Shown: positions 220 through 55,920 of the stretch, piece by piece
Layout of the letters: each line of letters starts with the position of its first letter
Numbering within the stretch: position 1 is the first letter of the stretch
DNA from: Candidatus Melainabacteria bacterium 17Bon1m
GTDB taxonomy: Bacteria; Cyanobacteriota; Vampirovibrionia; Obscuribacterales; Obscuribacteraceae
NCBI GenBank assembly: GCA_032128875.1
Contig: JAVLKG010000001.1
Coordinates: 192,001 to 256,000, forward strand
Reading direction: 5' to 3'
Length of the DNA stretch: 64,000 bases
Program-made: the position numbers and the translations under genes
Notes under the pieces: generated by a model
Database searches by the model: none
Seen by the model: the letters and a program-made list of their open reading frames with translations, nothing else
Told to the model about the DNA's origin: nothing

Positions 220-228
220 GAGTTGGTT

Positions 229-828: not shown

Positions 829-834
829 CAAAAG

Positions 835-1311: not shown

Positions 1312-1506
1312 AAAGGGTTCTAAGAGCTAGTACGGAAGTTTCGAACAAAAAGTTCAAAGCGTTCAGATTAAATCGGAAAAGCGCCAAATGATGCATTCTT
1401 GACATGCCTGCGCGTTGTGGCGAATTGAAATGTGCGCATCTATCTTTTAAGATGCAGGTCGCAAGAACTCGGTCGAAGCATCTAACTTCGATAGGAATCC
1501 ATTTTC

Positions 1507-2745: not shown

Positions 2746-2870
2746 CCTTGGGCGATTTGTTCGTGTCTGTGAGTAGCTGCATTAAACCTCACCCGAGGGA
2801 CTGTGGCAGCAGCTCGCCAGGCATGAGAAAATAGCCCCTGCTTGCAATTCCCGTCGAAAAAGGGGTCCCA

Positions 2871-5012: not shown

Positions 5013-5025
5013 TTGGGGCAACTAA

Positions 5026-10152: not shown

Positions 10153-10505
10153 GACGCTGTCGTTGTTGCTGGCTTGTATCTCTTGTGTTATCGGGGTTGT
10201 GGGGCTTCTGCGTCTGATTAAAGGGGGGCTGCGCTTATAAGTTTGCGCGTTTACACATTCCCCCCGAAGCGGGCTAACCATATACTCTCAATTACCCACG
10301 AACGGCAACAAATTTGACCAGCATTGCCGCCAACTCAGAGGGCGTTTCCACCAACCAGCCCGGTGGAAATCCCCCTGAATGGATAGAGCAATCTGCAGTA
10401 GTTTCCACCCCAGCGAAACGACCAAAATCTTGTTGATGCCTCTTTCTTCCCGCACAACATTTGTTGTGCTTCACCATGTGCTGCCTGTGCACAAAGGAGT
10501 TAATT

Positions 10506-11177: not shown

Positions 11178-11217
11178 GAGTCGACGATAACAGTTGGGAG
11201 TTTGGTTGAGAACGCAA

Positions 11218-11250
11218 AAGACCGTAGGCTTGTGGGAAGCCTGCGGTCTT
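11218..11250. terminator. Probable bidirectional terminator between convergent genes
   Basis: AAGACCGTAGGCTT-GTGGG-AAGCCTGCGGTCTT stem-loop. Confidence 0.7.
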
Positions 11251-11259
11251 GCCCTTTAT

Positions 11260-12108
11260 CTATTTCTCTTTTCCAGCCGCGTCTTTTGTTGCTGATTTCA
11301 TTTCTGTGCCTTGCTCGGCAGCTTTTAGATCTGGCTCGGACATAGCATTGAAATCGTATTCCACTTCGGCTGCTGCTGCTGACAATTTCGCTTGAGGGAG
11401 ATATTTCTTGACCAGTTTTTTTGTCTTGCTGTCAAACAAATAGATCTCCTTAGAATCTTTGCCTGCTGCTGCTTTTGATTGGTCAGTTGATTGGACTGTG
11501 AAGAAATAGTTCTCTCCATCGAAGTACCATTTGTCCACGACTGGAGGCACCTCTTTTCCCTTTTCGTTGGTTGCAAAAATGGTGGCACCTTTCTGCAAAT
11601 CAAAAACAAGCAAACCCGCGGGAGCATCACATTCGTGCGTGCTGAAGAGAAGTTTTTTATCCTTGCTTGTAAAGAAACTTCCCCCTGGCAAATTCCAGTA
11701 TTTGCCAGCGTTATTGACTAGCAGAAGTCGTCCGTCATAGTCACCGAGTTTGACTATTCCGCGATAATTATCAGATATCGGCTTCTTTGGAAAGTAGAGA
11801 CCGCAAGGACCGCCAAGTCCGTTGATATCGTTGAAGTACTCGCTGTTCACTTTCTTTCCATCGTTGGTAATGGTCACCCATGCTCGACAGTAACGTGGAT
11901 TTGAGTGCTTTTCATTCAGTCGCTTTACTTGCAATGCTTCCACAGACACTTTGCTATTTGGCACTGATATCGTGAATGTTTTTGCCGAACTTTCGGGATA
12001 GTCTGCTGGCTGAAATGGTTTTGCGAAAACTTCGATCGGCGGTACAGCAAACTGAAGGATAAATGAAGCAACTGCAATCGAAGACAATTTAGACAATTCG
12101 ATTTTCAT
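11260..12108 (-). CDS. Secreted hypothetical protein, beta-rich (propeller-like)
   Basis: Signal peptide; beta-strand-rich segments (LLVFDLQKG, IYLFDSKTK). Confidence 0.7.
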   Translation of the reverse strand: MKIELSKLSSIAVASFILQFAVPPIEVFAKPFQPADYPESSAKTFTISVPNSKVSVEALQVKRLNEKHSNPRYCRAWVTITNDGKKVNSEYFNDINGLGGPCGLYFPKKPISDNYRGIVKLGDYDGRLLLVNNAGKYWNLPGGSFFTSKDKKLLFSTHECDAPAGLLVFDLQKGATIFATNEKGKEVPPVVDKWYFDGENYFFTVQSTDQSKAAAGKDSKEIYLFDSKTKKLVKKYLPQAKLSAAAAEVEYDFNAMSEPDLKAAEQGTEMKSATKDAAGKEK

Positions 12109-33689: not shown

Positions 33690-36314
33690 ATGAGGTTGTC
33701 CATTAGTTGGTCACTGAATTCGAAAGAGTGGCGTTGTGCATTCATCTCTTTGATGTGCGCGACGTCACTCTTTTCGAGTGTAGCGCAGAGCTATGCGGCG
33801 GTGCCCGAGGGAAGCTCGACCAACGCTGTTTCAAAAACTGTTTCTAAATCCAGCTCTGCTTTAGGAGTCAAGATGAAGAGTGATTCTCCCCAAGCGATTC
33901 TGCACGAACTGGAAAGTTTTCGGCAGATGGGCAGCGTGTTGTACATTGCCGCCCATCCCGACGATGAAAACACCGAGTTGCTTGCGTATCTAGCACGCGG
34001 GCGTAATTACCGAACCGCATACTTGTCTTTGACTCGTGGCGATGGTGGGCAGAATGTTTTGGGTGCAGATCTTGGTGCGAAACTCGGCGTCGCTCGCACG
34101 CAGGAGCTTTTGGCTGCAAGGCAGATTGATGGTGCGCAGCAATTTTTCTCGCGCGCCAAAGATTATGGATTTTCAAAAAACTATCTGGAAACGATGGAAG
34201 TCTGGGACAAGCAAGAAGTGCTGTCCGACATTGTTCGCGTGATTCGAACCTTTCGACCTGATGTGTTGATTACGCGCTTTTCGCCCAGCCCTGGTGGAAC
34301 TCACGGGCACCACACAACTTCCACAATTTTGGCGATGGAAGCATTCAAACTCGCCGGTGATGCAAATGCTTTTCCCGAGCAGAAGTTGGAGCCGTGGCAA
34401 CCGAAGCGAATCTTCTGGAATGCCTCTATCTGGCAGAAAGACAAAATAACTGACCAGACGGTTTGGAAGATTGATGCAACAGGCAATGATCCTGTTTCTG
34501 GTGAGAGCTTCCATTCAATCGCGAGCGAGAGCCGGGCGATGCACAAGACCCAAGGGTTTGATACTTTCAAGCTGCCTGGTGGTAATGGTGAAAAACGGCT
34601 TGAGTCCTTTCAGCTTTTAGATGGTGCCTCTATCGAGAAAGACATCATGGATGGTGTCGACACGAGTTGGCATCGTGTCAATGGTGGCGATGCAATTGAG
34701 AAATCAGCCAGCGAGATAATCGCGAAATTTGATATCAATGATCCAGCAAAGAGCGTTGGGGCTGTGTTGGAATTGCGCAAGCAACTGGCACAACTAATGC
34801 AGACGCCGGCTAATAGCAATGATGTTGTCTTAAAAGAGAAAGCCGAGCTTCTTGATCGTATTTTGCGGTCATGCATTGGATTGAGTTTTGAGACCACAAT
34901 TGCAAATGCGGAGATGGTTCCTGGCGAGTCAATGAAGATGCACTTGTCGGCATGGCTTAAGTCGAAATTACCTGACAAATTGCAAGTAAAATGGCTTGAT
35001 GTGCAGTTTCCCAAACTAGGCGCTAGCGACAGCACTCTTAAGGTGAATCAGACACTTGATCAACCGAGAAGCGTAGAAACTACAAAAATTCTCCCTGCAC
35101 AAACACCTCTAACTCAGCCATATTGGTTGACTTCCGAAGGGACGCCGGGAATGTTTCATGTTGATGTTCCTGCTTTGATCGGAACCGCCGAGAATTCTCC
35201 TGCGTTCCCCGTGTATGGAACCTTCCAAATTGCGGATCAAACATTGGTAGTTCATGATGAACCGCTGCAAGTGTCTACGGATTCGTTGGGTAACCGCATT
35301 CGACGTCGACTTGATGTGATACCGCCAGTCTCGTTGCATTTCCTCTCGGACGTTATAGTGATGAAGCCGGGAATGACGCGGTCTGTGGAAGTAGAGTTAC
35401 GTTCGTCGCGCGCTAATACAAAGGGCTCTCTGGAGCTGGAAGCACCTTCAGATTGGAAGATAGATCCGAAGAAGCAAACATTCAATCTAGCTGATGTGGG
35501 CGAAACCGCGAAGTTCACTTTCACTGTCACAGCGCCGAATAATGCAGCGACAACTAAGATAACGGCAAGTGCAGAAGTCGATGGCGAGCGCTATCACAAT
35601 CAAAGACAAATCGTGAGCTATGCACATTTGCCGCGCCAGCTCTTGCAACCACCCGCGGTGATGAATGCTGTCAGCTTTGATCTTGCTACTCGCGGACATA
35701 CTATTGGATACCTGCCTGGTGCCGGTGACAGTCTTGTGGAAAACCTGCAGCAGATGGGCTACGCAGTGAAAATCCTCGATGATGCCAATCTAACGGCTAA
35801 GGAGCTCGAGGGGGTCGATGCCGTAGTTATTGGTGTAAGAGCATTCAATGTGCGCAACAACATTGCTAAGGCTATGCCTGCGCTCTTCACTTATATTGAA
35901 AATGGTGGCACGGTAATTGCGCAATACAATCGGCACGACAAATTGAAGGTCGAGAAAATAGCGCCATACGAGTTGCACATTTCCAATGATCGTGTCACCG
36001 ATGAAAAGGCTCCCGTAACATTCCTTGCGCCGGACAATCCTATTTTGAATACGCCAAACAAAATCACGAATGCTGACTTTGAAGGCTGGGTTCAGGAGCG
36101 CGGATTATATTTCCCAAATCAATGGGATGAACACTTTACGCCAATCTTGGCCTTCAGCGACAAGGGCGAACTTCCGCATGCCGGCGGTCTTCTTGCCGCT
36201 CAGTACGGCAAGGGTTATTACATCTACACGGGGCTCGGATTCTTCCGACAGCTTCCAGCAGGCGTACCGGGTGCGTATCGCTTGTTTGCGAATATGGTTT
36301 CGCTAGGGAAGTAG
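33690..36314 (+). CDS. Large secreted PIG-L/LmbE family deacetylase with Ig-like (NEW3-type) and GATase-like C-terminal domains
   Basis: AHPDDE, TRGDGGQN, ARTQELLAAR, HGHH; C-terminal GWVQERGLY...FFRQLPAGVPGAYRLFAN. Confidence 0.88.
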   Translation: MRLSISWSLNSKEWRCAFISLMCATSLFSSVAQSYAAVPEGSSTNAVSKTVSKSSSALGVKMKSDSPQAILHELESFRQMGSVLYIAAHPDDENTELLAYLARGRNYRTAYLSLTRGDGGQNVLGADLGAKLGVARTQELLAARQIDGAQQFFSRAKDYGFSKNYLETMEVWDKQEVLSDIVRVIRTFRPDVLITRFSPSPGGTHGHHTTSTILAMEAFKLAGDANAFPEQKLEPWQPKRIFWNASIWQKDKITDQTVWKIDATGNDPVSGESFHSIASESRAMHKTQGFDTFKLPGGNGEKRLESFQLLDGASIEKDIMDGVDTSWHRVNGGDAIEKSASEIIAKFDINDPAKSVGAVLELRKQLAQLMQTPANSNDVVLKEKAELLDRILRSCIGLSFETTIANAEMVPGESMKMHLSAWLKSKLPDKLQVKWLDVQFPKLGASDSTLKVNQTLDQPRSVETTKILPAQTPLTQPYWLTSEGTPGMFHVDVPALIGTAENSPAFPVYGTFQIADQTLVVHDEPLQVSTDSLGNRIRRRLDVIPPVSLHFLSDVIVMKPGMTRSVEVELRSSRANTKGSLELEAPSDWKIDPKKQTFNLADVGETAKFTFTVTAPNNAATTKITASAEVDGERYHNQRQIVSYAHLPRQLLQPPAVMNAVSFDLATRGHTIGYLPGAGDSLVENLQQMGYAVKILDDANLTAKELEGVDAVVIGVRAFNVRNNIAKAMPALFTYIENGGTVIAQYNRHDKLKVEKIAPYELHISNDRVTDEKAPVTFLAPDNPILNTPNKITNADFEGWVQERGLYFPNQWDEHFTPILAFSDKGELPHAGGLLAAQYGKGYYIYTGLGFFRQLPAGVPGAYRLFANMVSLGK

Positions 36315-36315
36315 C

Positions 36316-38196
36316 ATGAACGGGCTGGACATATTCGTACTCATAGTGTCCATCTGCGCAATCGCATTGTATGGGGTCTGGCACACCAGAAATCGTCGCG
36401 ACCTCGATAGCTATCTCAAAGGAAGTGACCACACACCTTGGTGGGTAATCGGTATATCGGTAATGGCTACACAAGCCAGCGCGATCACCTTTTTGTCCAC
36501 CCCAGGGCAAGGATATCTTGGCGGATTGAGCTTCCTGCAAGTTTATTTTGGTGTTCCGATTGCGATGATAATCATCGCCGCCTGTTTTCTGCCGATCTTT
36601 CACAAACTACATGTCTATACAGCATACGAATATCTGGAGAAGCGTTTCGATCGCAAGACGCGTTTGTTCGGCGCAGGGCTGTTTCTCTTGCAGCGGGGCA
36701 TTGGAGCCGGTCTGACTATTTATGCTCCTGCGATTGTTTTGTCGACAGTATTCGGTTGGTCCTTGCCGCTGACCATCGTAGCGTGCGGACTTATCGCTAC
36801 TGCCTACACCGTATTTGGTGGTACCGATGCGGTTACTGTTACACAGAAGTATCAGATGGCTGTGATTTTTCTTGGTATGACGACTGCTGCAGGCATTTTG
36901 CTCTCGAAGCTTCCTGATGGTCTGACTTTCTTCGATGCGATGAATGTTGCCGGCGGATTTCAAAAGCTGAACGCTGTCAATTTGTCGCCAAGTTTGCACG
37001 AGCGGTATACGGTGTGGTCGGGATTGCTCGGCGGAACCTTCTTGATGCTGTCTTATTTTGGCGCAGATCAATCGCAGGTTCAGCGCTACCTTTCTGGGGA
37101 TTCTCTGCGTGAAAGCCGGCTTGGCTTGATGTTTAACGCGGTCTGCAAAATTCCCATGCAACTGTGTATCTTGATGCTTGGTGTGATGATGTTCGTGTTT
37201 TATCAATTCGAGCGACCGCCGCTGTTCTTTGACTCCGCTGCAAATAATTTTCTCGAGAGTCATCGAGGCGATGCTGTAGTTGCTAAGCAATTGGTTGGGT
37301 ATGAAGCCGAATTCAATAATCTGCACGATCAGGGCAAGCAGCACCTCATAAGTTGGTTGGCTGCGAAGCGCCGAGGAGATGAAAGCACTGCGACCGCTGA
37401 GTTTGTCAGTGCGGCAGTGACCCAGCAAGCAGGTGAGAAAGTGCGGTTGGCGGCGGCAAATGAGGTGACGCAGCTTCAAGCGCAAGGTGTTAGTGCTAAC
37501 ACTGCAATTGAGAAATCCACTGCAACTGAGAGATCCATTGCAACTGAGAGATCCATTGCAACGAAGGAGACTTCTGGCACGCCTTCTGAAAAGCCAGACT
37601 CCAAGAAAAGTAAATCTGTCTCTGCCACCAGTGCGGACTATGTTTTCATAACATTTATATTGCGTGAGCTCCCGCATGGTGCCATTGGTTTGTTGGTCGC
37701 GGCGTTCTTTGCCGCTGCTCTTTCGTCTAAGGCTGCGGAGTTGAATGCGTTAGGAACCTGTACCACCATAGACTTCTATCGATTGTTGATAAAACGCGAC
37801 GCCACCGATGCTGAGTCATTAGTGGCGTCGAAGCTTTTTACGGCTTTCTGGGGCGTTGTCGCTGTCTTCATTGCACTTTACGCACAGCTCTCTGAGAATC
37901 TCATTCAAGCGGTAAACATCCTTGGGTCAATTTTTTATGGTGTGCTGCTTGCGCTGTTCATCGTTGGTTTTTTCTTAAAGCGTGTTGGTGGCACCGCCCT
38001 ATTCTGGTCGGCGGTGATATCACAAACGCTGGTTTGCGTCTTGTACTTCAACCTGACGATTTCGTATCTCTGGTATCCGCTGATTGGTTGTGGCACCTGC
38101 GTGGTGATTAGTCTGCTTCTTCAGCTTGTTTTTGGTAACAACAATAAAAGCCGCAAGGATGCGGCCGTTCGTGGCGAGGTAGTGGAGGCGGCATGA
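36316..38196 (+). CDS. Sodium:solute symporter (SSS) family protein
   Basis: SVMATQASAITFLSTPG, TAYEYLEKRFD, GADQSQVQRYL; many TM helices. Confidence 0.92.
   Translation: MNGLDIFVLIVSICAIALYGVWHTRNRRDLDSYLKGSDHTPWWVIGISVMATQASAITFLSTPGQGYLGGLSFLQVYFGVPIAMIIIAACFLPIFHKLHVYTAYEYLEKRFDRKTRLFGAGLFLLQRGIGAGLTIYAPAIVLSTVFGWSLPLTIVACGLIATAYTVFGGTDAVTVTQKYQMAVIFLGMTTAAGILLSKLPDGLTFFDAMNVAGGFQKLNAVNLSPSLHERYTVWSGLLGGTFLMLSYFGADQSQVQRYLSGDSLRESRLGLMFNAVCKIPMQLCILMLGVMMFVFYQFERPPLFFDSAANNFLESHRGDAVVAKQLVGYEAEFNNLHDQGKQHLISWLAAKRRGDESTATAEFVSAAVTQQAGEKVRLAAANEVTQLQAQGVSANTAIEKSTATERSIATERSIATKETSGTPSEKPDSKKSKSVSATSADYVFITFILRELPHGAIGLLVAAFFAAALSSKAAELNALGTCTTIDFYRLLIKRDATDAESLVASKLFTAFWGVVAVFIALYAQLSENLIQAVNILGSIFYGVLLALFIVGFFLKRVGGTALFWSAVISQTLVCVLYFNLTISYLWYPLIGCGTCVVISLLLQLVFGNNNKSRKDAAVRGEVVEAA
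37501..37570 (+). repeat. In-frame 18-bp tandem repeat in the SSS loop
   Basis: TGCAACTGAGAGATCCAT-type units encoding TAIEKS-TATERS-IATERS-IATKET. Confidence 0.85.
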
Positions 38197-38996
38197 CTTC
38201 TCCTGTTATATGTTTTGGGCAACAACCGTGTGGATTTTATCCGAAGCGGTTTTTGGTATCGAAGATTTTTACTGCACGGAGATTGCAGAAAGAGATCGGC
38301 GGCAAGATAGTATTTTTCTATCATGACAGCGATCACGATCCACGTGAGACGCGCACCATTCTGCGCCACCGCACTACAAATGATCCTGCGCAGCTCAACT
38401 TCACTTTCGAGAACAAAACGCAGCGAAAGTTCTCACCACTTTATGCAAAACGAATTCCAGGCGGTTGGCAAGAAAAGACGATTTTGCAGTTACCAAATTA
38501 CATCGACCACCCATTGATCAATATTTTCAAAGCGACGCACGTAAGTAACGTTGCTGATTTCTGCTTAGAAATGTATCGAGGCATGGGGCTGCTTGAAGGT
38601 ATTGAAGTTGTCAGATCCGGTAGCCCTGAATTCCGTCGCAGCGCCTGTGATATTACTGATTTCTATGTGGATGTTAATTACGACAACGAGATCGTCCGCG
38701 CGCGTGTTGCCGGAAACGTTCTAAAGTTGCATGAAGGCGGCAATGCATTTATCGAGCTGCCTATGGTGCCGTTTTCGAAAGAACAAATCAATCCGACGCG
38801 CGATACTCGTTTGCGCTGGATGCAGTCTGTGATTCATTGCACGCATTATATTGCGGGGGCGGGAGAGCAGGCATATTTGCACAAGGACGAAGCGCCTGAA
38901 ATTGAATTCGTAACACGGGATGAAATAGATTTGTCCGATGAGGCTTACGTAGAACTGCCATCGTCTAGTAAGAAGGAGGAAACTATTGAACATTAG
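38193..38996 (+). CDS. Compact BshC-like protein (putative bacillithiol cysteine-adding enzyme)
   Basis: FGQQP, VFFYHDSDHD and NPT...YIAGAGEQAY parallel the BshC motifs TGQQ, VFW..EDHD and SPN...YVGGPGE.AY; immediately upstream of bshB1-bshA. Confidence 0.65.
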   Translation: MTSPVICFGQQPCGFYPKRFLVSKIFTARRLQKEIGGKIVFFYHDSDHDPRETRTILRHRTTNDPAQLNFTFENKTQRKFSPLYAKRIPGGWQEKTILQLPNYIDHPLINIFKATHVSNVADFCLEMYRGMGLLEGIEVVRSGSPEFRRSACDITDFYVDVNYDNEIVRARVAGNVLKLHEGGNAFIELPMVPFSKEQINPTRDTRLRWMQSVIHCTHYIAGAGEQAYLHKDEAPEIEFVTRDEIDLSDEAYVELPSSSKKEETIEH

Positions 38997-39052
38997 TGAT
39001 ACCATCTTCTCAAGCGTTGTGTCGGATTTTGAGATTTCAGAGGAGGAGAGAA

Positions 39053-39772
39053 TTGAACGAAATTAGTTCTGCTCCTGTGTTGGCTTTTGGTGCGCATCCC
39101 GATGACATTGAGTTCGGCTGTGGAGGCGTGCTTGCGGTCGAGTCGCGCAAGGGACGTAGTGTACATTGCGTAATTTGCTCATTGGGCGAAGCCGCTTCCA
39201 ATGGCACTCCGGAAGGACGCCGTGCGGAATCTATCGCGGCGACCGAATGCCTCGGTGCAACTGTAGAATTCGTTGCGCTGGATGGTGACGCGAAATTAGA
39301 AATTCGCGCAGAACACACCCTCAAACTGGCTGAAGTAATTCGTCGTGTCCGACCATCTACTGTATTAGCGACAACTTGCTTTGAAAATCAACATCCCGAT
39401 CACTGGCGACTGGGAAAGATTGTTCGCGATGCTGCTCGCGTTGCGAGATATGGTGGATTAAAGGATGTGCAAGGCGAACCCCACGCAATCGGGCAGTTGT
39501 TCTATTACGCCGTAACGCCAGAAGGCGAACCTAACAATATTCATCCGATTTTGATCGATGTTTCTTCCTCAGACGTTGTGAATTCGTGGACTGCCGCAAT
39601 GGGCGCGCATGCCTCACAAGGTGCGACGCGCAATTACATTGATTTGCAATTGAATCGGGCTAGGGTTTGGGGTGCGCGCGCCGGCGTCGAATATGCTATG
39701 GCGCTGTTCCCGAATGATCCGCTGATGTTTGAATCGCTCGCTCAGGCGGGTAAAGGAGCGCGAAATTTCTAG
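39053..39772 (+). CDS. bshB1: BshB1-like N-acetylglucosaminyl-malate deacetylase (PIG-L family)
   Basis: AFGAHPDDIEFGCGG, GEAASNGTPEGRRAE, HPDH. The likely start is TTG 39053 after AGGAGG (the ORF track starts at 38996). Confidence 0.8.
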   Translation: MNEISSAPVLAFGAHPDDIEFGCGGVLAVESRKGRSVHCVICSLGEAASNGTPEGRRAESIAATECLGATVEFVALDGDAKLEIRAEHTLKLAEVIRRVRPSTVLATTCFENQHPDHWRLGKIVRDAARVARYGGLKDVQGEPHAIGQLFYYAVTPEGEPNNIHPILIDVSSSDVVNSWTAAMGAHASQGATRNYIDLQLNRARVWGARAGVEYAMALFPNDPLMFESLAQAGKGARNF

Positions 39773-40963
39773 GTGTCAAAGAATAATTCCAAATCGGATG
39801 CATTGAGAATTGGTATCACGTGCTACCCCACGGTTGGTGGCAGCGGTGTGGTGGCGACTACGCTTGGAATTGAACTTGCTCAGCGCGGACACGAGGTTCA
39901 CTTCATCAGCTATGAACGCCCATTTCGCTTGCCCGAAAATTCCTCTCGAATACATTTCCACCAGGTCTGTGTCAACGACTATGGTTTGTTCAAATATCCC
40001 GACTACACCTTGCCACTTTCCGTAGCAATGGCTAGTGTCAGTTGCAAGCACAATCTCGACATCTTGCACGTACACTACGCGGTACCGCACGCGACCGCAG
40101 CTTTGCTTTCGCGCTGCATGTTGCCTCCCGACAAACAACCTCGCATCGTCACAACATTGCACGGCACCGACACGACATTGCTAGGCGCAGACCCAGGGTA
40201 TGGTCCGGCAATTCACCACGCATTAATTCAGTCCGATGCGGTGACTACAGTGTCCGATTGGTTGAAATCAGAAACCAAACGAGTGATTGGATTTGACGGG
40301 GCAATGGAAGTTATTCACAACTTTTACGAGCCTGGCAAACCGTCGCGTACACGCGAAGCTGTTCGTCAGGACCTGGGAGTTGGTGATGAAGTCTTGATAC
40401 TTCACTCGTCCAACTTGCGACCACTCAAACGCATTGATTTATTGCTTGAATCTGTGGCGAAGATTCGCGACAGAAATTCATTCAAATTGTTGATTTTGGC
40501 GGGTGGTGATTTCAAACAATTCAGTGCCGATGTAAAACGTCTTGGATTGGAAGATCGCATTGTAGTTCGTGAAAACGTTCTGGAGATAGAAGAATACTTA
40601 CAGGCTGCCGACCTCGCTTTGTACACATCGGAAAGCGAGAGCTTTTGCCTGAGTATTTTGGAAGCAATGTTCTTTGGTTGTCCCAGCGTTGCAACGAATG
40701 TCGGCGGAATTCCAGAAGTTATTGATGATGGAGAGACTGGAATACTGGTGCCTTTTGGAAACGCTGATGCAATTGCGGAAGCATTGGAAGACCTGATCTT
40801 GGATAAGGCAAAACGTCAGCGCTTCGGCGAGAATGCTCGCAAGGAAGCGCAGCGTCGATTCTCTGCGGATGCAATCATCCATCGTTACGAAGAGCTGTAT
40901 CGTCGATTGCTTTGCTCGCCGCCATCGGTTGCCGTTGGAGAAGTTGTTGAAGGATGTCGCTAG
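39773..40963 (+). CDS. bshA: N-acetyl-alpha-D-glucosaminyl L-malate synthase (GT4)
   Basis: IGITCYPTVGGSGVVAT.LG, LHVHYAVPHA, TTLHGTD, ESFCLSILEAM. Confidence 0.92.
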   Translation: MSKNNSKSDALRIGITCYPTVGGSGVVATTLGIELAQRGHEVHFISYERPFRLPENSSRIHFHQVCVNDYGLFKYPDYTLPLSVAMASVSCKHNLDILHVHYAVPHATAALLSRCMLPPDKQPRIVTTLHGTDTTLLGADPGYGPAIHHALIQSDAVTTVSDWLKSETKRVIGFDGAMEVIHNFYEPGKPSRTREAVRQDLGVGDEVLILHSSNLRPLKRIDLLLESVAKIRDRNSFKLLILAGGDFKQFSADVKRLGLEDRIVVRENVLEIEEYLQAADLALYTSESESFCLSILEAMFFGCPSVATNVGGIPEVIDDGETGILVPFGNADAIAEALEDLILDKAKRQRFGENARKEAQRRFSADAIIHRYEELYRRLLCSPPSVAVGEVVEGCR

Positions 40964-43339: not shown

Positions 43340-44560
43340 ATGCTAACTAAAAATCGAAATGAAGTCCTGTCGCTGCTGCTGACAGGCGCACGTTTGATCG
43401 ATATGCCGACCCTCGAACAAGGTTATGCTTCATCCGCCCGTTTGAGCACACCATTGCACAAAGTGCTTGTGATGCTGGGCTTCGTTAGTCAGTTCAAGAT
43501 GGACCGAGTGCTGCACGCAGAGACAATGATTCGCGTTCACGAGCTGTCGCCGGATCTGGCGGTGAAAGCACTGCGCATTGCGACAACGCAACAGCTCACA
43601 TTCGAGGAAGCGCTCGATGCGCTGGGCGACGAACACAAGAAAACGCAATTGATGCCAACTGCGTCCAACGAGATCACGAATCTTTTGGTCGAAGCAGGCT
43701 GCATCAACAACGAGCAAATAGGGCGAGCGCTCAAAACTTCGTTGGAGAACGGAATGCAAATGGGACGCGTACTTGTCTTTCATCGCGACGTCACCAGTCA
43801 GGTAATGAAGGCTGCGATTGCTTGCTGCATGTTGATGCAAGAAGAGAAGATTGGCTTGGCGTCAGCAGTTGAAGCGGTGAAGCATGTGCGCAAAACAAAT
43901 CAATCTGTAGAACAAGTGATGTTCCAACACAATATTTATCACGAAGAGCCAGGTCAGGGACCGAGGATTCATGAGCTTTTCGCAATGGCAGGTTTTGTGT
44001 CAGATACCGACTTGATGGAATGTCTCGAATTGCATGTATTGCGTGGACGGCAGATTGGTCAACTCTTTATTGAACAAGGTTTGATTAACAGTACCGTTTT
44101 GGAAAATGCGATTGTATTGCAAGGCATGGTCGCAAGTGGGGCCATCAAGGCGTATCATGCTGCAGAAGCCTTGAAGACGTCGTACAACAAAGAAGTTTCG
44201 ATCTATCAAGCTCTCGGCGAACTAAACCCCCCGGCATTTCCAGCAACGCCGAATCTCACTTTCGGTGAATTGCTTCTCTCTGCGAATTTGGTCAAGCGCG
44301 AAACGTACGACAGCTATTTCGAAGGACTCGAATTGTGTTCTCGGCAGATGGCGAAGAAACTTCTCGCCGCCGGAACGATCAACGACAAGACATGCGTCAC
44401 TGCATTGCGTGTGTTATCGCTGAACAACGAAGGATTTATCTCGAACAAAGATGCAGTCGAGATCCTTCGGCACGTGGTGTCATACGACGCGAACCTCGAC
44501 GAACAGCTTGCAGCCTGGGCTCACTTCGCACCAAATCGGATGCAATGGATCTGGCGGTAG
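43340..44560 (+). CDS. Tandem MshEN-like repeat protein, paralog A
   Basis: Repeats resembling RLGxxLxxxGxIxxxxLxxxLxxQ, e.g. RQIGQLFIEQGLINSTVLENAIVLQ and ITNLLVEAGCINNEQIGRAL. Confidence 0.75.
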   Translation: MLTKNRNEVLSLLLTGARLIDMPTLEQGYASSARLSTPLHKVLVMLGFVSQFKMDRVLHAETMIRVHELSPDLAVKALRIATTQQLTFEEALDALGDEHKKTQLMPTASNEITNLLVEAGCINNEQIGRALKTSLENGMQMGRVLVFHRDVTSQVMKAAIACCMLMQEEKIGLASAVEAVKHVRKTNQSVEQVMFQHNIYHEEPGQGPRIHELFAMAGFVSDTDLMECLELHVLRGRQIGQLFIEQGLINSTVLENAIVLQGMVASGAIKAYHAAEALKTSYNKEVSIYQALGELNPPAFPATPNLTFGELLLSANLVKRETYDSYFEGLELCSRQMAKKLLAAGTINDKTCVTALRVLSLNNEGFISNKDAVEILRHVVSYDANLDEQLAAWAHFAPNRMQWIWR

Positions 44561-45028
44561 AAACGATTTGCATGAGTGACAACTTCTATTTCAGATACAA
44601 ATAATAAATCCCCCCTGAAGTTTTTTGACTCATGCGGTGAGCAACGGTAGAAAGCGAGCTCGGCTATGCCTTTGAATTAAAAGCAGGCGAGTCCTTGGTG
44701 TCAGATTGAATTTCGCAAAAGGCGCTTGAAGTCAATTCGAACAAATTTGTAAGGTGATTTGTTGGCTGTCGATCTGGCGATCCCACTTTTGAGGGAACTG
44801 ACAACCCGTGGCGCGAGTTAAGTTCTGGAAGTCTAAGATCGGCTTGTGATTCGAGAGTTTTCTATATTTTCTTAGCAAGTTACCAGCGGGATAGTATTGT
44901 GGTTATAATTCTTGCCCTTGGGGTCTTTTGGCAGCAAATATATTTCCAGTGATTTTTTGCTGGCAGTTCATTTTCTTGTGTGGTTTTTTGCTCCACAAGC
45001 TCTCTTTGCGCACCCTCCATGTGCTCAG

Positions 45029-45046
45029 CATCATCATCATCATCAT
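45029..45046 (+). repeat. (CAT)6 microsatellite running into the flavoprotein start codon
   Basis: CATCATCATCATCATCAT followed by G; the ATG is at 45045. Confidence 0.9.
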
Positions 45047-45596
45047 GAACGAACAGAATGTGCAATCAGTTTTGCTGATAGGGAGCGGTTCAATCGCTGC
45101 TGGAAACATCGCTGGTTTGACCAGCAAGCTGTGTGAAAACTTTCGGGCTTCAGTGAGAGTTGTGTTGACGTCAGCCGCTACCAAGTTCACTTCGGTTGAA
45201 TTTATAAAATACGCTGGTGGCGCGCTGGAGGTTTTTACAGATCAAAGCACTCAGCAAATGTCGGACTTTCCGAATCACATAGCTCTCCCTGCTCAATCGG
45301 ACCTGACGATTGTCTATCCAGCAACCGCAGACTTCATCGGAAAAATGGCAAACGGTCTAGGAACTGATCTTGCCTCTACGATTATGCTTTATGCAGATCA
45401 AAACATAATTGTTGTGCCATCCATGAACGTGGAAATGTGGCGAAACAAGTTTGTTCAGAAAAATGTAAGAGCGCTCCAAGACGAGGGCATTCATATGATT
45501 GAGCCTAATGATGGTATGGCGCCATCAGTGGACGAGATAGTTGTGCAAGTGCAGAAGTATTTATCCCAAAAATTCAAAATTTACCAACAAATATAA
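45045..45596 (+). CDS. HFCD flavoprotein, LanD/EpiD-like peptidyl-cysteine decarboxylase
   Basis: GSGSIAA, catalytic His in NHI, PATADFIGKMANG (PASAN-type), PSMNVEMW (PxMNxxMW); no CoaB domain and no ACGD Cys clamp. Confidence 0.85.
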   Translation: MNEQNVQSVLLIGSGSIAAGNIAGLTSKLCENFRASVRVVLTSAATKFTSVEFIKYAGGALEVFTDQSTQQMSDFPNHIALPAQSDLTIVYPATADFIGKMANGLGTDLASTIMLYADQNIIVVPSMNVEMWRNKFVQKNVRALQDEGIHMIEPNDGMAPSVDEIVVQVQKYLSQKFKIYQQI

Positions 45597-45609
45597 AGGA
45601 GAATTTCAT

Positions 45610-46320
45610 ATGTCAGTGAAGGCAGACGAGAAACACACAATTACTTTGGAAGTTAGAGTGCCGATAGCCGTTGACGAAGGAAAGCGAGCGAAGTTTGAAG
45701 ATGCAATGACAAATTTTATACTCGGTCACGATCGAATTCGTCCTGAACTTCATGATGCGTTAGTTGAAAGAGGTGTCGATATTAAACGCTTAAATGAGCT
45801 GTCTACTCCTGAAAAGCTGGGAGTTTGCAGATCAAAGGATGCTATGGAGTTCATTCCAACGCCTGAGCTTGTGGGTATAGGTAATAGAGCGGGAATAGAT
45901 TTTCGAGCTGGTGGAAAGCTCAACATTGAATTTGACTATTCAAATTCAAATGCTAGCAGCACGGATGTATTGGAAATGAAATTGCAATTACCATCTTCAA
46001 TTGAGGGCGTTGCTTCTGGTCAGGTTGGAAATATAATGAGGTCACTTTTTGGTGATTGTCACCTCTCAGTCAGAGCTCAGGATTATCTGCTTGCTCACGG
46101 AATTGATATTGCGGATTTGGCGGCTCAGAACATTGCGTCTTTAGGAAATGGAAGTGTTCCTCCAACTGCCCGAGTTGATAAATCTGTAGCAGATACATTA
46201 GATCAATTCGGATTGAACACCGCACGGCTAGGAAAAATTCAAGTGAAAGCTATGGCTGGTGATGCGGCACCGCTCAATGCGAATCCACCGATTGCGTGGA
46301 GCAAAACAACCTGCTGTTAA
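45610..46320 (+). CDS. Candidate RiPP precursor: duplicated ~100-aa leader domain plus C-terminal tail ending WSKTTCC
   Basis: RBS AAGGAG, ATG 45610, 236 aa; terminal Cys-Cys; located between the HFCD and radical SAM genes. Confidence 0.7.
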   Translation: MSVKADEKHTITLEVRVPIAVDEGKRAKFEDAMTNFILGHDRIRPELHDALVERGVDIKRLNELSTPEKLGVCRSKDAMEFIPTPELVGIGNRAGIDFRAGGKLNIEFDYSNSNASSTDVLEMKLQLPSSIEGVASGQVGNIMRSLFGDCHLSVRAQDYLLAHGIDIADLAAQNIASLGNGSVPPTARVDKSVADTLDQFGLNTARLGKIQVKAMAGDAAPLNANPPIAWSKTTCC

Positions 46321-46328
46321 GGTGATTT

Positions 46329-47807
46329 ATGATATATCGTTCTATGGCGCCCCCGCAGTGGGGGCGCTTGCCAGGTCATATACAACTTGAGTTGGTACCG
46401 ACTCAGACACTCGTGGATGGTGAAGACACTATTCTCTTTCCGCTCCTAAAGCATTCTTGGCTCAGAGTATCAACCAAGGATCTAGAGAATGTGTTAATGC
46501 TTGATGGGCGTACTATCGACAGTATTCGCAATTCCCGCGAATCAATTAAGGACCTGATTCCGCTGTTGGATTCACTGTATTCCTCAGGTCTCTTATCCAT
46601 TGATGGACATAGTGGACTAGATGCAGAGCGTAAAGAAGAAACCTCTGGTCCGTCGACACTATTGATCAAGATGACTGGAGCTTGCAATATAGCCTGCAGC
46701 TATTGTTATGACTTTGATCAAAGTAGATGGAATGGACGTGGGAGTTCAACCCATGCGAAACATTTGATTGCTGATTCGTTTTCGGTCAATGATTCGATTA
46801 CTGTTATGTTTCACGGTGGTGAACCACTGCTGCATTTTTCTGAGATCAAAGAACTCGTATCGTTTGCAAACGAAATTGCCCATCGCGATGGAAAGAAAAT
46901 CACCTATTCCATTCAAACTAATGGATTGTTGCTGGATGAGGAGATCGTTCAATACCTTTTGAACGAGTCTTTTGACGTCGGCATTTCTTTGGATGGCCCC
47001 CTAGAAATTCATAATTTGTACCGTGTTGATCACAAAGGAAGGGGAACCTTCGAAGCATTAATAAAAAAATTCGATGAGTTTCCTGAATTTATGAGAACTC
47101 GAGTTGGATTTATGAGTGTAATTACTCAGAATTCGGTGTTTCATTTGGATCAAGTATGGCAATTCTTTCGAGATCTAGATGTTCAAACATGGAAACTGTC
47201 TCCAATGCTGCCGGAAGGTCGTGCATGTACAAATCAAGTGACTGCCAATTACATCGAGAGTTTTGTGGACTTTTTAGAAGAACGACTGCTGGAAATCATA
47301 AATGGAAGCTACCATCGCCCATACCTAATAAATCTGATTCAGGCAGTAGAACCATTTTTATCTCGTAATAGTAAGAATGTTTGTACTTCCTTTCCTTGTG
47401 GAGCTGGTCGTGATTTCGTGGTTTTAGATGCAAAAGGCGCACTGCGCTCGTGTGACTGCAGCTATCGTGATGACTTTTTTCTTGGCAATGCTGACTTTGA
47501 TTTGTTGAAGATGGTAAAGACTGAGTTTAAGAAAAGCGACCTGGCGAAGCGTGAACAGTGGCTTGTGGATTCTGAATGTGGACAATGTGTTTGGCTCCCA
47601 TTTTGCGGTGGAACTTGTCCCGCCGAAGCGCTCGCAAACACAGGAACTGTTCTAGCCGTTGACGAGCTGGAGTGCAACTTGCGAAAAAGGCTATTCCCAA
47701 GGATTGCAAAAGAAGTGTCTCAAGAAAGCTCGAACCTTCGCGAATATATTCAACAACGCCGAAGCGATAGGGCAAACTCTCTTACGAAGGTTAAGGAGGC
47801 CAGGTGA
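46329..47807 (+). CDS. Radical SAM/SPASM peptide-modifying enzyme with ~105-aa N-terminal extension (putative RRE)
   Basis: CNIACSYC, FHGGEPLL, IQTNG, GISLDG; SPASM cysteines VC...PCGAG...SCD...CGQCVWLPFCGGTCP...EC. Confidence 0.9.
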   Translation: MIYRSMAPPQWGRLPGHIQLELVPTQTLVDGEDTILFPLLKHSWLRVSTKDLENVLMLDGRTIDSIRNSRESIKDLIPLLDSLYSSGLLSIDGHSGLDAERKEETSGPSTLLIKMTGACNIACSYCYDFDQSRWNGRGSSTHAKHLIADSFSVNDSITVMFHGGEPLLHFSEIKELVSFANEIAHRDGKKITYSIQTNGLLLDEEIVQYLLNESFDVGISLDGPLEIHNLYRVDHKGRGTFEALIKKFDEFPEFMRTRVGFMSVITQNSVFHLDQVWQFFRDLDVQTWKLSPMLPEGRACTNQVTANYIESFVDFLEERLLEIINGSYHRPYLINLIQAVEPFLSRNSKNVCTSFPCGAGRDFVVLDAKGALRSCDCSYRDDFFLGNADFDLLKMVKTEFKKSDLAKREQWLVDSECGQCVWLPFCGGTCPAEALANTGTVLAVDELECNLRKRLFPRIAKEVSQESSNLREYIQQRRSDRANSLTKVKEAR

Positions 47808-48646
47808 GGATACAGGGCGATAATTGGGATCACATGATTTATGAGCGTTTAGGTAGCGATGGAAATCTCGATTCTTCTTTCTCTCACCTTGATATGGTGC
47901 ATTTGACGGTCGAGATGCTCGGAGAATCTCTTCCCACGTATTTGCGTGAGAATATTTCGAAAATCCAACGAGTCGTGTCTCAAAAAGATTATGCCGATTG
48001 CGATCTAACACATGTAATTATTGATTGGCTTGCTCGCTACTTTAAAGACATGCACGATTCAATGAAATATCCGTACCTAAGTAATCACGAAGAATGGCAA
48101 CATTTAACAGAGACAAATGCAAATATTCCAAATAGTGGCTGTGTATACGTAACATTCCAACTTGGTTTTCCACTTTTAGTGCCGATATTACTGGCGGATT
48201 TATTGAATTCTCCTGTCCGTGCACTTATTCATGATCAAAATCCAAAGGTCGCAAGCTTCTATCAATCGGTTCGGCATAATTTGGATTTTGCGTATGTGAA
48301 CTATTTAGATCCTTATGAGCAGATATCCTTTTTAAAGAGTGGTGGTCTTTTAGTTGCAAATATAGATACGGCTTATCCAGGCACAAGAGTAGAATCAATG
48401 CCGATTTTGAATTCCTGTATTCGTGTCCCATCTGGATTCATTCCACTGGCAAAACGAGCTAAAGCAGCTATATGTCCCGTTTCATTAGTTGCGAACGAAG
48501 GACGCCTTGAGCGTCACTTTGGCTTGCCTATTTGCAGCCAGAAGAACTCGATATTCGAAATACTTAAGTCGCTCTCTGGTTTCTTTGAAACAGTAATCAG
48601 AAAACATCCGGAGCAATGGCTAGCTTGGTCAAGTCTGGAGTTTTAG
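47804..48646 (+). CDS. LpxL/LPLAT-superfamily acyltransferase-like protein (divergent)
   Basis: LKSGGLLVANID, PSGFIPLAKRAKAAICPV, FETVIRKHPEQWLAW; GTGA overlap with the rSAM stop and an AAGGAGG RBS. Confidence 0.7.
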   Translation: MRIQGDNWDHMIYERLGSDGNLDSSFSHLDMVHLTVEMLGESLPTYLRENISKIQRVVSQKDYADCDLTHVIIDWLARYFKDMHDSMKYPYLSNHEEWQHLTETNANIPNSGCVYVTFQLGFPLLVPILLADLLNSPVRALIHDQNPKVASFYQSVRHNLDFAYVNYLDPYEQISFLKSGGLLVANIDTAYPGTRVESMPILNSCIRVPSGFIPLAKRAKAAICPVSLVANEGRLERHFGLPICSQKNSIFEILKSLSGFFETVIRKHPEQWLAWSSLEF

Positions 48647-48671
48647 CATTCAATTAAAAAACGCAAGTTGC

Positions 48672-49196
48672 ATGCAGCACGACAGAGCGATTAGAGAATT
48701 AGTGGTGTACTTTTATCCTGAATTATTTGTCAAACGAATTGGATTTGGCTGCGAGTCTGATGTTTTTCTTGGCACTGATATCTACAGCCACTTGAAGGTC
48801 AAGTATTTCAAATATGAGAGTGACTTTTGTCGTCATTATTTTGGAATACCACTTTTATTAGAAGCATTGAGCGACCTTGGCTATAGTGACTACGTTGACA
48901 TTCCTGGAATTGTCGCCGTTAACAAGGAACTCCTCGCAATCGTGTCACCGTACATATCCGAACAGCAGCGATTTGATTCTAAAGAGTTTGAGTCAAGTAA
49001 GTTGAGAGCGGTAACGGCATTGTTGTGTGCGGCGGGCAGAGTTGTGACATTAACACCTGAAAAGATTGCATTGAAGTTCAATACTCAAGCACACTCAATG
49101 AATGCCTTGGTTGAAGATTTTGTCTTTTCAGGAGTGGATTTCTCGGGCGACAATCTAATGTTTGACGGTGTTCGCTGGTGGGCCATTGATTTCTAG
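48672..49196 (+). CDS. Minimal protein-kinase-like (RIO/APH-like) protein
   Basis: P-loop IGFGCESDVF, KVKYFK, catalytic-loop DFSGDNL, terminal WWAIDF. Confidence 0.65.
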   Translation: MQHDRAIRELVVYFYPELFVKRIGFGCESDVFLGTDIYSHLKVKYFKYESDFCRHYFGIPLLLEALSDLGYSDYVDIPGIVAVNKELLAIVSPYISEQQRFDSKEFESSKLRAVTALLCAAGRVVTLTPEKIALKFNTQAHSMNALVEDFVFSGVDFSGDNLMFDGVRWWAIDF

Positions 49197-49244
49197 CATT
49201 TGTGTCTTCGTGAAATCGTATGATTGAGAGTGCATAGGTATTTG

Positions 49245-49604
49245 TTACCCGATTACAGTTGCCGCGAGCTTTGCACACAGGAACGCTATCGCGATCGCCT
49301 GCTGCTCACTTGTCTTCGTGCGTTTCGCTTCCTTCAGTATCCTCCTAATGCATGCAATTTCTTCACCACAAGGGAACCGAATACACAGCTCGTGTTCAGC
49401 TGCTGTCAGCACTTTGATATACCGCTTCTCGAAACGAGTCAACTTTGGTCGCGATTCAATTTCTTCTCTTATCGCACGGAGTTGTTGCAGTTCTCTCGTC
49501 GTGAGTCGGTTCGGCGGCTCGAGAGATTCCTGCAGGTATTCTTCATCTGTGACAGCGTACGAGCGACCATACGCGGTCGCATAGTTATGCGAAAAGATTT
49601 CCAT
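49245..49604 (-). CDS. Hypothetical protein
   Basis: 119-aa helical ORF converging on the operon. Confidence 0.5.
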   Translation of the reverse strand: MEIFSHNYATAYGRSYAVTDEEYLQESLEPPNRLTTRELQQLRAIREEIESRPKLTRFEKRYIKVLTAAEHELCIRFPCGEEIACIRRILKEAKRTKTSEQQAIAIAFLCAKLAATVIG

Positions 49605-50196: not shown

Positions 50197-50268
50197 GGGC
50201 GGCATTAAGCCGCCCCTACAAGACCGTTGTGGATAAGCGAGACGGGCGATGCATGGCATCGCCCCTAC
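50197..50268 (-). repeat. Two tandem GTAG-family REP-like palindromes
   Basis: Minus strand reads GTAGGGGCGGCTTAATGCCGCCC (50197-50219) and GTAGGGGCGATGCCATGCATCGCCC (50244-50268). Confidence 0.8.
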
Positions 50269-50324
50269 GGTTTTAAGGAGAGCCCAGAAGACTGCTATGC
50301 TTGCTCAGGAAGTCCCCTTCTTCT

Positions 50325-54696: not shown

Positions 54697-55920
54697 ATGC
54701 TTACAAAAAATCGCGATAACGATGTCCTGTCGTTGCTTTTGACAGGCGCGCGGATTATCGAGCTCAGCACGCTTGAGGAGGGATATGCATCCTCTGCTCG
54801 CCTCAGCACGCCTTTGCACAAGGTTTTGGTCATGCTCAGGCATGTCAGTCAGTACACGATGGACAAGGCTTTGGCGGCAGAGACCATGGTACGGGAGAAT
54901 CAGATTTCGACGGACATTGCCGTTAAAGCTCTTCGTATTGCGACCACGCAACAGCTCTCTTTCGAGGATGCTCTGGCATCGTTGGGCGATGAGCACAAGA
55001 AAACCAACAATATGCCGAGCGCGTCCAACGAAATTTGTGACCTGCTCGTTGAAGCTGGAATCATCAATAACGAGCAGATTGGTCGCGCCTTGAGCACGTC
55101 ACTCGAAACCGGCATGCAGATGGGACGCATTCTGGTGTTCAATCGTGATGTCACGACCAACGTTATGAAAGCAGCGCTTACGTGCTGCATGATGTTGCAG
55201 GATGAAAAGCTCGGATACGCATCAGCTGTCGAGGCGGTGCAGTCTGTTCGTAAGACAAATAAGACTGTGGAAGAAACATTCTTCAGGCTCAATATCCATC
55301 ACGAAGAGCCCGGTCAAGGTCCAAAATTATACGAATTGTTCGCAATGGCTGGTTTTGTGTCGGACACTGACATGATGGAGTGTCTCGAGATTCACGTTTT
55401 GCGTGGAAGGCAACTAGGTCACATTTTCATTGAACAAGGTTTTGTGAAACATGAGGCTGTTGAAAACGCCATTACTTTGCAGGGCATGATCACTAGTGGT
55501 GCAATCAAGGCATATCAGGCTGCGGAAGCGCTTAAGAACGCTAACTTGAAGCAGATATCGATCTATCATGCGCTTGGCGAATTGGACCCACCGGCGGTGC
55601 CACCCACACCCACGTTGACGTTCGGACAGCTTTTGATTTCTTCCGGGATTGTTCATCCCGAGATGATGGAAGGTTTGATGGGCGGCATGGAACTCAATGC
55701 CCGTCAGCTTGCGAAGAAGGCATTGTCTGCGGGATATCTCACAGACAAGTCGTGTGTTACAGCGTTGCGTTGTTACTCGCTAAACAGTGAAGGATTCATC
55801 TCGAACAAGCAATGCGCTGAAATTCTCAAACAATGTGCGACACATGATTTGAACCTTGACGAACAGCTCGCTAAGGGCGGGCATTTTGTGCCGAATCGAA
55901 TGCACTGGATTTGGCGTTAG
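54697..55920 (+). CDS. Tandem MshEN-like repeat protein, paralog B
   Basis: Collinear with 43340-44560 over the full length (e.g. RQLGHIFIEQGFVKHEAVENAITLQ). Confidence 0.78.
   Translation: MLTKNRDNDVLSLLLTGARIIELSTLEEGYASSARLSTPLHKVLVMLRHVSQYTMDKALAAETMVRENQISTDIAVKALRIATTQQLSFEDALASLGDEHKKTNNMPSASNEICDLLVEAGIINNEQIGRALSTSLETGMQMGRILVFNRDVTTNVMKAALTCCMMLQDEKLGYASAVEAVQSVRKTNKTVEETFFRLNIHHEEPGQGPKLYELFAMAGFVSDTDMMECLEIHVLRGRQLGHIFIEQGFVKHEAVENAITLQGMITSGAIKAYQAAEALKNANLKQISIYHALGELDPPAVPPTPTLTFGQLLISSGIVHPEMMEGLMGGMELNARQLAKKALSAGYLTDKSCVTALRCYSLNSEGFISNKQCAEILKQCATHDLNLDEQLAKGGHFVPNRMHWIWR

Follow-up and report, generated by a model that had tools for sequence, protein, structure and literature searches.

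A conserved Trp-x-Lys/Arg-x-Thr-Cys-Cys tail as candidate core of a protein-sized precursor encoded beside HFCD and radical SAM genes

A 236-residue protein (P0001) encoded in Candidatus Melainabacteria bacterium 17Bon1m ends in a heptapeptide that is conserved in every tailed member of its family. We consider it probable (about 0.6) that this heptapeptide is the core of a protein-sized RiPP-type precursor, tailored by the HFCD flavoprotein and the radical SAM (rSAM)/SPASM enzyme whose genes lie on either side. The window, the 64,000-nucleotide DNA analyzed here (GCA_032128875.1, contig JAVLKG010000001.1, positions 192,001 to 256,000), carries a same-strand run of five genes for the HFCD, P0001, the rSAM/SPASM enzyme, an LPLAT-like protein, and a kinase-like 174-aa ORF. 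The features are located as follows.

44557..49415 (no strand): inserted low-GC segment with the cassette; flanks conserved in congeners
45045..45596 (+): stand-alone HFCD flavoprotein, 183 aa, LanD/EpiD-like (PF02441, E 3.5e-21)
45610..46320 (+): 236-aa precursor-like protein P0001; predicted folded body of two ~100-aa repeats, then linker and putative core
46261..46296 (+): part of the variable linker, D218-A229, including N223 and N225; unconserved
46297..46320 (+): conserved candidate core heptapeptide W230-S-K-T-T-C-C236 and stop; 23/23 tailed sequences, synonymous codons in six loci
46329..47807 (+): rSAM/SPASM enzyme, 492 aa; below the cut-off of every NCBIfam family given below
47804..48646 (+): LPLAT-like (lipid A/PatA acyltransferase-like) protein, 280 aa (PF03279, E 4.5e-5, just over the cut-off)
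48672..49196 (+): minimal kinase-like protein, 174 aa, ending at a DF motif (Atlas features 0.95 and 0.92 to kinase-like clusters)

The conserved tail and its predicted folded carrier

Translation of 46261-46320 (+) gave DAAPLNANPPIAWSKTTCC*, the end of the ORF that runs from the ATG at 45610 to 46320, and agreed with the residue numbering of the initial annotation (N223, N225, W230, K232, T233, T234, C235, and C236). A family of 34 sequences including P0001 was assembled from protein searches, contig scans, and a genome search. A CC terminus was present in 23/34, and all 23 of these ended in W-x-[K/R]-x-T-C-C*. W230 and T234 were each found in 23/23, and position 232 was Lys in 20 and Arg in 3. 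Since the selection fixed only the two terminal cysteines, the invariance of W, K/R, and T is not circular. S231 was kept in 15/23 and T233 in 14/23, position −4 (T233) being T in 14, A in 5, R in 2, S in 1, and G in 1, and never Asn. The fixed W230, K/R232, T234, and C236 hence alternate with the free S231 and T233. Dropping the near copies P0002 and L004 from 22 aligned sequences left 20 non-redundant tailed sequences with pairwise identities of 35-70%, in which the most common residue of a column had an average frequency of 0.89 for the tail, compared with 0.57 for the body and 0.29 for the linker. Between G208 and the Trp, the linker varied in sequence and in length (15-28 residues), and no conserved cleavage motif was found in it among the aligned tailed sequences.

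The whole end of the ORF from D218 had been proposed as a core with several modification sites, and this comparison divides it: W230, K/R232, T234, C235, and C236 are kept, whereas N223, N225, S231, and T233 vary. Judged by conservation, the core is the last seven residues only, W-x-[K/R]-x-T-C-C. The asparagines suggested as an rSAM site (N-x(n)-C) belong to the variable linker, N223 occurring in 3/22 sequences and N225 in 4/22, and Asn was absent from positions −4 and −5 in all 20 non-redundant sequences. The W-S-K match, for which chance had been allowed, is not due to chance as W-x-K/R, with its W in 23/23 and its K/R in 23/23, and K/R exchange is described for daropeptides (PMC9055067) and WxR/K precursors (PMC11851443). 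Among 6034 six-frame ORFs of at least 150 aa of the genome, a W.[KR].TCC end occurred once, and W.[KR] within the last 19 residues was present in 194/6034 six-frame ORFs. The tripeptide alone is therefore a weak signal, and the case is carried by sequence conservation. Across the six loci described below, the tail codons varied synonymously (Ser AGC/TCG, Lys AAA/AAG, and Cys TGT/TGC, with TAA, TGA, and TAG stops), which indicates selection on the peptide. A DNA-level constraint was ruled out by this synonymous variation together with the unlike downstream spacers.

P0001 gave no match in Pfam or NCBIfam. Its AlphaFold2 model, made with 23 sequences, had a mean pLDDT of 85.4 and a pTM of 0.80, and included a strand at residues 228-233 (tail strand pLDDT about 70-77). 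The predicted body consists of two beta-alpha-insert-beta repeats at about residues 8-107 and 118-213. Alignment of its two halves with hhalign gave a probability of 94.5% (E 7.6e-8), compared with 3.2% or less for 31 controls (one reversed and 30 shuffled); the repeat was missed by pairwise BLAST and detected with profiles. By profile comparison, the body is a tandem duplication. C150 was present in 28/28 rows of the precursor alignment (A2) and C73 in 26/26 rows covering it, and R44 and R188 were further conserved body residues. Fold searches gave no clear match (best Foldseek E 0.12; best structural Z 4.8, VIA). Comparison with the beta-alpha-beta fold of the tautomerase superfamily gave a best Z of 4.8 with an rmsd of 4.2 over 89 aligned residues and a Foldseek E of 0.12, and an Atlas search gave leads below 0.9 only; matches this weak show neither a new fold nor kinship. 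The 229 residues ahead of the core are modeled as mostly a folded domain, which could be an oversized leader or carrier.

The remaining 11/34 family members lack the CC end. Six of them stop soon after the body (P0015, P0016, P0017, P0021, P0024, and P0029), P0023 and P0026 have odd ends, and P0019, P0022, and P0025 diverge earlier and look frameshifted. In a body-only tree, made without P0002, P0019, P0021, P0022, P0023, and P0025, the four tail-less homologues P0015, P0016, P0017, and P0029 formed a supported branch (98/99). Since these homologues form a supported clade, the body persists without the tail, where it either has its own function or chaperones a separate peptide. Thirteen related rSAMs (P0048-P0060, one of them from Mesorhizobium) form a second tier and may be partners of the tail-less homologues.

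The folded protein may itself be the product, its tailored tail serving as a tethered cofactor, metal ligand, or lipid anchor that works with C73, C150, R44, and R188; this could be combined with any of the chemistries considered below. A conserved body that is confidently predicted to fold, the tail-less homologues, and the predicted tail strand would agree with such a role, as would the linker and loci, in which no conserved cleavage motif, protease, or exporter was seen. A linker that varies over 15-28 residues would, however, suit a core that is released or held by a flexible tether, and darobactin is described as being released by host proteases without a cluster protease (PMC9055067). 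We regard this alternative as somewhat unlikely.

Distribution and setting of the cassette

The order HFCD-precursor-rSAM-LPLAT-like was found in 6/6 loci, namely the window, L002 (Virgisporangium ochraceum), L003 and L004 (Streptacidiphilus), L005 (a metagenome contig), and L016 (genome G647), which span the window genome, four actinomycete genomes, and one metagenome contig. Three more precursor/rSAM pairs on equal-sized contigs (12124, 13899, and 4722) suggest co-location. The kinase-like gene was present in 3/6 loci (window, L002, and L005), and searching both Streptacidiphilus genomes in full turned up no convincing copy. The precursor end is WTKATCC at the three loci lacking the kinase and WSKTTCC at the three carrying it; because the kinase-less loci are one clade, this covariation of S231/T233 with the kinase counts as one event.

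No protease, transporter, or oxidase was shared in a Pfam scan of 28 selected cassette and flank ORFs of L002-L005 with the L016 flanks inspected by eye, and no conserved resistance gene was seen in the flanks examined. No dehydratase (LanB, LanM, LanKC, or LanK+LanY) was found within the cassette at the six loci. Single loci carried further genes in their neighborhood. L005 has a LanB dehydratase and a cupin gene at 1921-6135 (−), on the strand opposite to the cassette and about 1-2 kb upstream of it. L016 has, by eye, a separate upstream cluster at 19-5273 (a large ORF, a P450-like ORF, and an MFS-like transporter) and a P450-like ORF at 10449-12089 directly downstream of the cassette. None of these was found at any other locus.

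The cassette is rare and mobile, and in the window genome it is an insertion. Its GC content is 42.8%, compared with 49.9% for the genome, a value equally low in only 1/278 tiles of contig C1, and its flanks, 4.86 kb apart here, are separated by 198 bp in congener G008. The slot at 44557-49415 differs among congeners in its cargo and in the distance between these flanks (G008, about 0.2 kb; G011, about 10 kb; G007, about 14 kb), and therefore looks like an insertion hot spot. The precursor was found in 0/100 relatives of the window genome and 0/300 genomes of the phylum, and in 2/151, 1/151, 3/401, and 1/351 genomes of actinomycete samples, centres included. Neither a precursor search of plasmids and viral contigs nor an rSAM search of plasmids at 1e-30 gave a match, and no meaningful terminal repeats were found around the segment. 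Promoter and terminator counts were about at shuffle level (7 vs 8.6, and 8 vs 4.6 with an sd of 2.6, respectively). In an RNA library, the whole stretch and its flanks appeared in one 39-kb contig of flat depth, which is no demonstration of transcription.

Elsewhere in the window, paralogous 406/407-aa proteins with repeated helical units are encoded at 43340-44560 (−) and 54697-55920 (+); the former had Pfam matches below cut-off only, and such paralogues are multi-copy in congeners. A short repeat of ~30 bp at 50243-50278 has many copies across the window genome and congeners. An operon at 33690-40963 was taken by eye to encode a PIG-L deacetylase, a sodium:solute symporter, and BshC-like, BshB-like, and BshA-like proteins, presumably of bacillithiol type.

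Enzymes encoded beside the precursor

In a PDB search with the HFCD, EpiD/MrsD chains outranked CoaBC and HAL3, and the two NCBIfam matches, CoaBC (116/220 bits/cut-off) above CypD (25/215), were both below cut-off. The LACGDFGTGKM segment of CoaBC, whose ACGD part presumably holds the reducing Cys, was missing from the HFCD in 6/6 loci, and the genome has a separate housekeeping coaBC on contig C6; these two observations ruled out a housekeeping CoaC. LanD-type HFCDs are marked by an active-site His and PxMN..MW motifs. The window HFCD has PSMN, those of the other five of the six loci have PSMH, and control HFCDs have PxMN. At the clamp-loop region, only a short xDGMAP/xNGMAP link was found in 6/6 loci, compared with longer loops in the CoaBC of the genome and in a lanthipeptide-cluster flavoprotein. 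We took the loop without a counterpart here to be the substrate clamp, and its position is likewise assumed. A substrate clamp of HFCDs is named in PMC8549060, in which His67 of EpiD is described as essential. The aligned residue, His78, was present in 5/5 aligned copies. Going by these motifs, activity of a clampless HFCD with PSMH in 5/6 loci is not guaranteed.

HFCDs are described as acting on C-terminal Cys (PMC11350588). The terminal Cys had been named as a candidate HFCD site, a proposal that gains support from the sequences: C236 is exactly C-terminal in 23/23, and the HFCD gene lies directly upstream in 6/6 loci. It might still be that the tail is an unmodified structural strand or metal site and that the enzymes act elsewhere, which would suit the predicted strand, the alternating conservation, and the departures of the HFCD and the LPLAT-like protein from canonical active sites. 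The position of the Cys and of the HFCD gene, together with the known site of HFCD action, speaks against it, and we hold this possibility to be highly improbable.

The rSAM was below the cut-off of every NCBIfam model among the matches listed, the best being PapB (156.8/340) and anSME (157/349) at 157 bits each, followed by SCIFF (128.3/425), YhhB (113.5/445), GrrM (98.9/310), DarE (NF038005; 95.2/650), and AmcB (83.6/425). Among 31 rSAMs at 1e-20, the DarE model matched 7 and the mycofactocin rSAM model 2, and the FxsB model reached a best E of 7.5e-29 among rSAM members, also below cut-off. The models for ranthipeptide rSAMs (PapB and SCIFF) and triceptide maturases (YhhB, GrrM, AmcB, and FxsB) are thus all below cut-off, although an aromatic-X-X core is present as W-x-[KR] in 23/23. 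Membership of the darobactin or triceptide families, to which the initial annotation had likened the tail, is not supported by these scores, nor by the sequence ahead of the motif, where W-N-W is absent (Trp two residues before W230 in 0/22 sequences).

Eight SPASM cysteines (352, 357, 375, 417, 420, 426, 430, and 449) were invariant in 31/31 rSAMs (alignment A9). They match the fully ligated anSME/SuiB pattern, as against seven cysteines in CteB/PapB. The former type is described as fully ligated and the latter as having an open AuxI site (PMC6231123, PMC10177961), and SkfB illustrates that a Cys count can mispredict ligation, as extra Cys need not ligate (PMC6231123). An N-terminal extension of ~105 residues aligned partially with the N-terminal region of CteB and would be RRE-like. 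The rSAM-precursor complex prediction scored 0.00, which is no answer and carries no weight either way. Thirty more distantly related rSAM/SPASM proteins (P0061-P0090, 30-38% identity) make up a third tier, and many of them share the C-x4-CGA...CDC layout.

HxxxxD/E is the catalytic motif of LPLAT acyltransferases. In a MAFFT alignment with two PatA-like proteins, the HxGNWD column was occupied by QLG(F/Y)xL in 5/5 LPLAT-like copies, so that Gln stands at the position of the catalytic His; hhalign aligned the C-terminal part only (P 19.9%), and the placement of this column rests on MAFFT. H28, H84, H143, and D188 were invariant, of which H84 and H143 may be alternatives to the missing His. The LPLAT-like model was of low confidence (pLDDT 42) and its fold search uninformative, and PDB sequence searches with the LPLAT-like and kinase-like alignments gave nothing meaningful. 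Acylation of Lys or Ser/Thr, raised in the initial annotation, is doubtful with the HxxxxD dyad absent from the five aligned copies and Arg replacing K232 in 3/23.

The kinase-like proteins are 172-185 aa long across loci. The window copy has a Gly loop, a Lys, D-x4-N, and a terminal DF, all typical motifs of kinases; the catalytic-loop D and N are lost from the copies of L002 and L005. Phosphorylation of Ser/Thr as a core step, also proposed earlier, is disfavored by this loss of the catalytic Asp/Asn in two of three copies, by the missing gene in 3/6 loci, and by the variable S231 and T233. LanD partners with a kinase fold lacking catalytic residues are described (RosX and TvaE; PMC12291118). 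The pairing of an HFCD with a kinase-fold partner resembles class Va lanthipeptides and thioamitides (LanK/LanY/LanD/LanX; RosX, TvaE; PMC12291118), whereas here no lyase or second kinase for Dha/Dhb accompanies a kinase-like gene that is itself missing from 3/6 loci.

Candidate chemistry and relation to known systems

From the conservation, gene linkage, and enzyme-family motifs observed above, we infer all of the following chemistry. The folded two-repeat body would act as an oversized leader or carrier, joined to the core by a linker of free length. The adjacent HFCD very probably decarboxylates C236, by analogy with EpiD and SycD; this first, oxidative step would give an enethiol. The rSAM/SPASM enzyme would then take a hydrogen within the heptapeptide and close a ring. 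Tailoring of a C-terminal Cys by an HFCD with an rSAM has precedent in SycC/D (PMC10989515). With no dehydratase to supply Dha or Dhb as acceptor, the enethiol must be trapped in another way. In a speculative third step, the invariant C235 would probably hold it in a vicinal disulfide or a metal-binding dithiol, or the LPLAT-like protein, which lacks the His, would cap it. An accessory role would fall to the kinase-like protein, and the core could be released by a host protease or stay on the protein. Against the heptapeptide as tailored core stand the absence of a conserved protease or transporter from the flanks examined, the clampless HFCD, and the role that the body would have without a tail.

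The single most likely ring among the options is a Trp230-Lys/Arg232 C-C cyclophane, which we propose tentatively, at a little less than an even chance, and which would have been reached independently of DarE, WgkB, and WprB. It was ranked first because of the invariance of the residues, the K/R exchange known from DarA cluster III, the repeated origin of such links (DarE, WgkB, WprB), and the eight-Cys SPASM domain. W-x-K/R cross-links are described as having arisen in several rSAM families, with K/R exchange tolerated in DarA (PMC9055067, PMC11851443). Against it, the best models for the rSAM are PapB and anSME and not cyclophane synthases, and the alternating conservation with the predicted strand at 228-233 is also what a bound beta-strand would show on one face, in which case W and K may serve recognition only. 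The likeness to daropeptides (DarA/DarE), WgkB, and WprB lies in the W-x-[K/R] motif with K/R exchange and a SPASM rSAM. The daropeptide core is given as WNWx(K/R)xF or a W-x-aromatic ether motif (PMC9055067). Here, by contrast, there is no W-N-W ether motif, no DarBCD, and a low DarE score, and an HFCD, a Cys-Cys end, and a protein-sized precursor are present.

The missing dehydratase, which leaves the enethiol needing a trap, favors a role for C235 or the thioether and lactam alternatives. The syc cluster (SycA/SycC/SycD, AviCamCys), which was reportedly described by Cheng et al. 2023, resembles the 6/6 loci in its LanD-like HFCD with a SPASM rSAM, its C-terminal Cys, and the lack of a dehydratase. 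A SycC-like rSAM could bond a sulfur, from either the enethiol of C236 or the thiol of C235, to a carbon in K/R232 or in T234; the resulting thioether, unsaturated or saturated, would be new, and W230 would be used for recognition. The only published rSAM-LanD pair makes such a link (PMC10989515), K232-x-x-C235 has the NxxC spacing, and the best NCBIfam model for the rSAM is the thioether-former PapB; Tte1186 is described as joining Cys to Thr (PMC10177961), and the thioether would trap the reactive enethiol. The Syc acceptor position (−4) is, however, variable here and never Asn, the eight invariant SPASM cysteines leave no obvious open site, and the invariant Trp is left unexplained; such a thioether is unlikely on balance. 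SycA is given as 22 aa long with Asn19...Cys22 (NxxC) and an MFS transporter (PMC10989515). Here, in contrast, the precursor is 236 aa long, has a body predicted to fold, and terminates in W-x-K/R-x-T-C-C without Asn (position −4 is T, A, R, S, or G in 23/23, and the NxxC motif is absent), and an LPLAT-like and sometimes a kinase-like gene are added. Its motifs place the cassette outside both the daropeptides and the Syc group.

Two points go beyond the initial annotation: most of the upstream 229 residues are predicted to be folded, and the invariant Cys-Cys beside an HFCD recalls holomycin- and MftC-type chemistry. The rSAM could take the beta-hydrogen of C235 and bond this carbon to the alpha carbon of the C236 enethiol, closing a five-membered lactam with two adjacent sulfurs, which is the holothin skeleton; the acyltransferase-like protein would N-acylate or release it, and W-x-K-x-T would be a docking strand. 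Holomycin is described as arising from two Cys with the HFCD-type decarboxylase HlmF and the N-acyltransferase HlmA (PMC3826145, PMC11350588), and MftC as closing the same ring between C-beta of the penultimate residue and C-alpha of the decarboxylated terminal one (PMC11350588). By analogy, the lactam would best explain why two adjacent Cys are kept together with an HFCD and, in 6/6 loci, an acyltransferase-like gene, and it would also account for the eight-Cys SPASM domain. A full holothin would, however, take four two-electron oxidations by our count and a cut behind T234. The flanks examined showed no conserved additional oxidase, protease, or resistance gene, and the mycofactocin rSAM model matched only 2/31 rSAMs at 1e-20. 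This route is decidedly unlikely. The same long odds hold for the wider idea of a ribosomal route to a dithiolopyrrolone (holothin) skeleton or a protein-tethered ene-dithiol, in which the Cys235 C-beta to Cys236 C-alpha lactam would form with or without the Trp-Lys/Arg cyclophane above it, and the two-repeat body would be the carrier and may replace the clamp missing from the decarboxylase.

The likeness to holomycin (HlmE, HlmF, HlmA) and other dithiolopyrrolones, in its two Cys, HFCD-type decarboxylase, and acyltransferase, is one of chemical logic only. Holomycin is NRPS-made with further flavoenzymes, whereas the Cys-Cys here is ribosomal and accompanied by an rSAM and an LPLAT-type acyltransferase-like protein; a Cys-activating NRPS (HlmE) and the HlmB/HlmD oxidases were absent from all cassettes and scanned flank ORFs. 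Mycofactocin (MftA/MftC) shares a SPASM rSAM on the last two residues and possibly the C-beta to C-alpha lactam, whereas MftC decarboxylates Tyr itself, MftA ends in Val-Tyr, and the cassette rSAM lies outside the MftC family. No published account of the family or its tail motifs was found in the mostly open-access main texts searched; a listing in a genome-mining table (e.g., Cheng et al. 2023, PMC11162475) may exist.

The only HFCD and rSAM pathway found in print is described as acting on an NxxC peptide (PMC10989515). The present family pairs this enzyme duo with a different candidate substrate, which has no Asn, an invariant Trp-x-Lys/Arg, a Cys-Cys end, and a 210-residue leader predicted to be folded, and its enzymes include a clampless decarboxylase and an acyltransferase-like protein without the catalytic His. 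We place the cassette as a new variant in C-terminal tailoring by HFCD and rSAM, with a minority chance of categorically new chemistry. If any of the main chemistries is true, the cross-link or scaffold would be one that we did not find described, the candidate products being an enethiol-ended cyclophane, a vinyl thioether at Lys/Thr, and a ribosomal dithiolopyrrolone. The cassette is compact, with four or five genes in about 4 kb, and versions of it are present in named actinomycete genomes.
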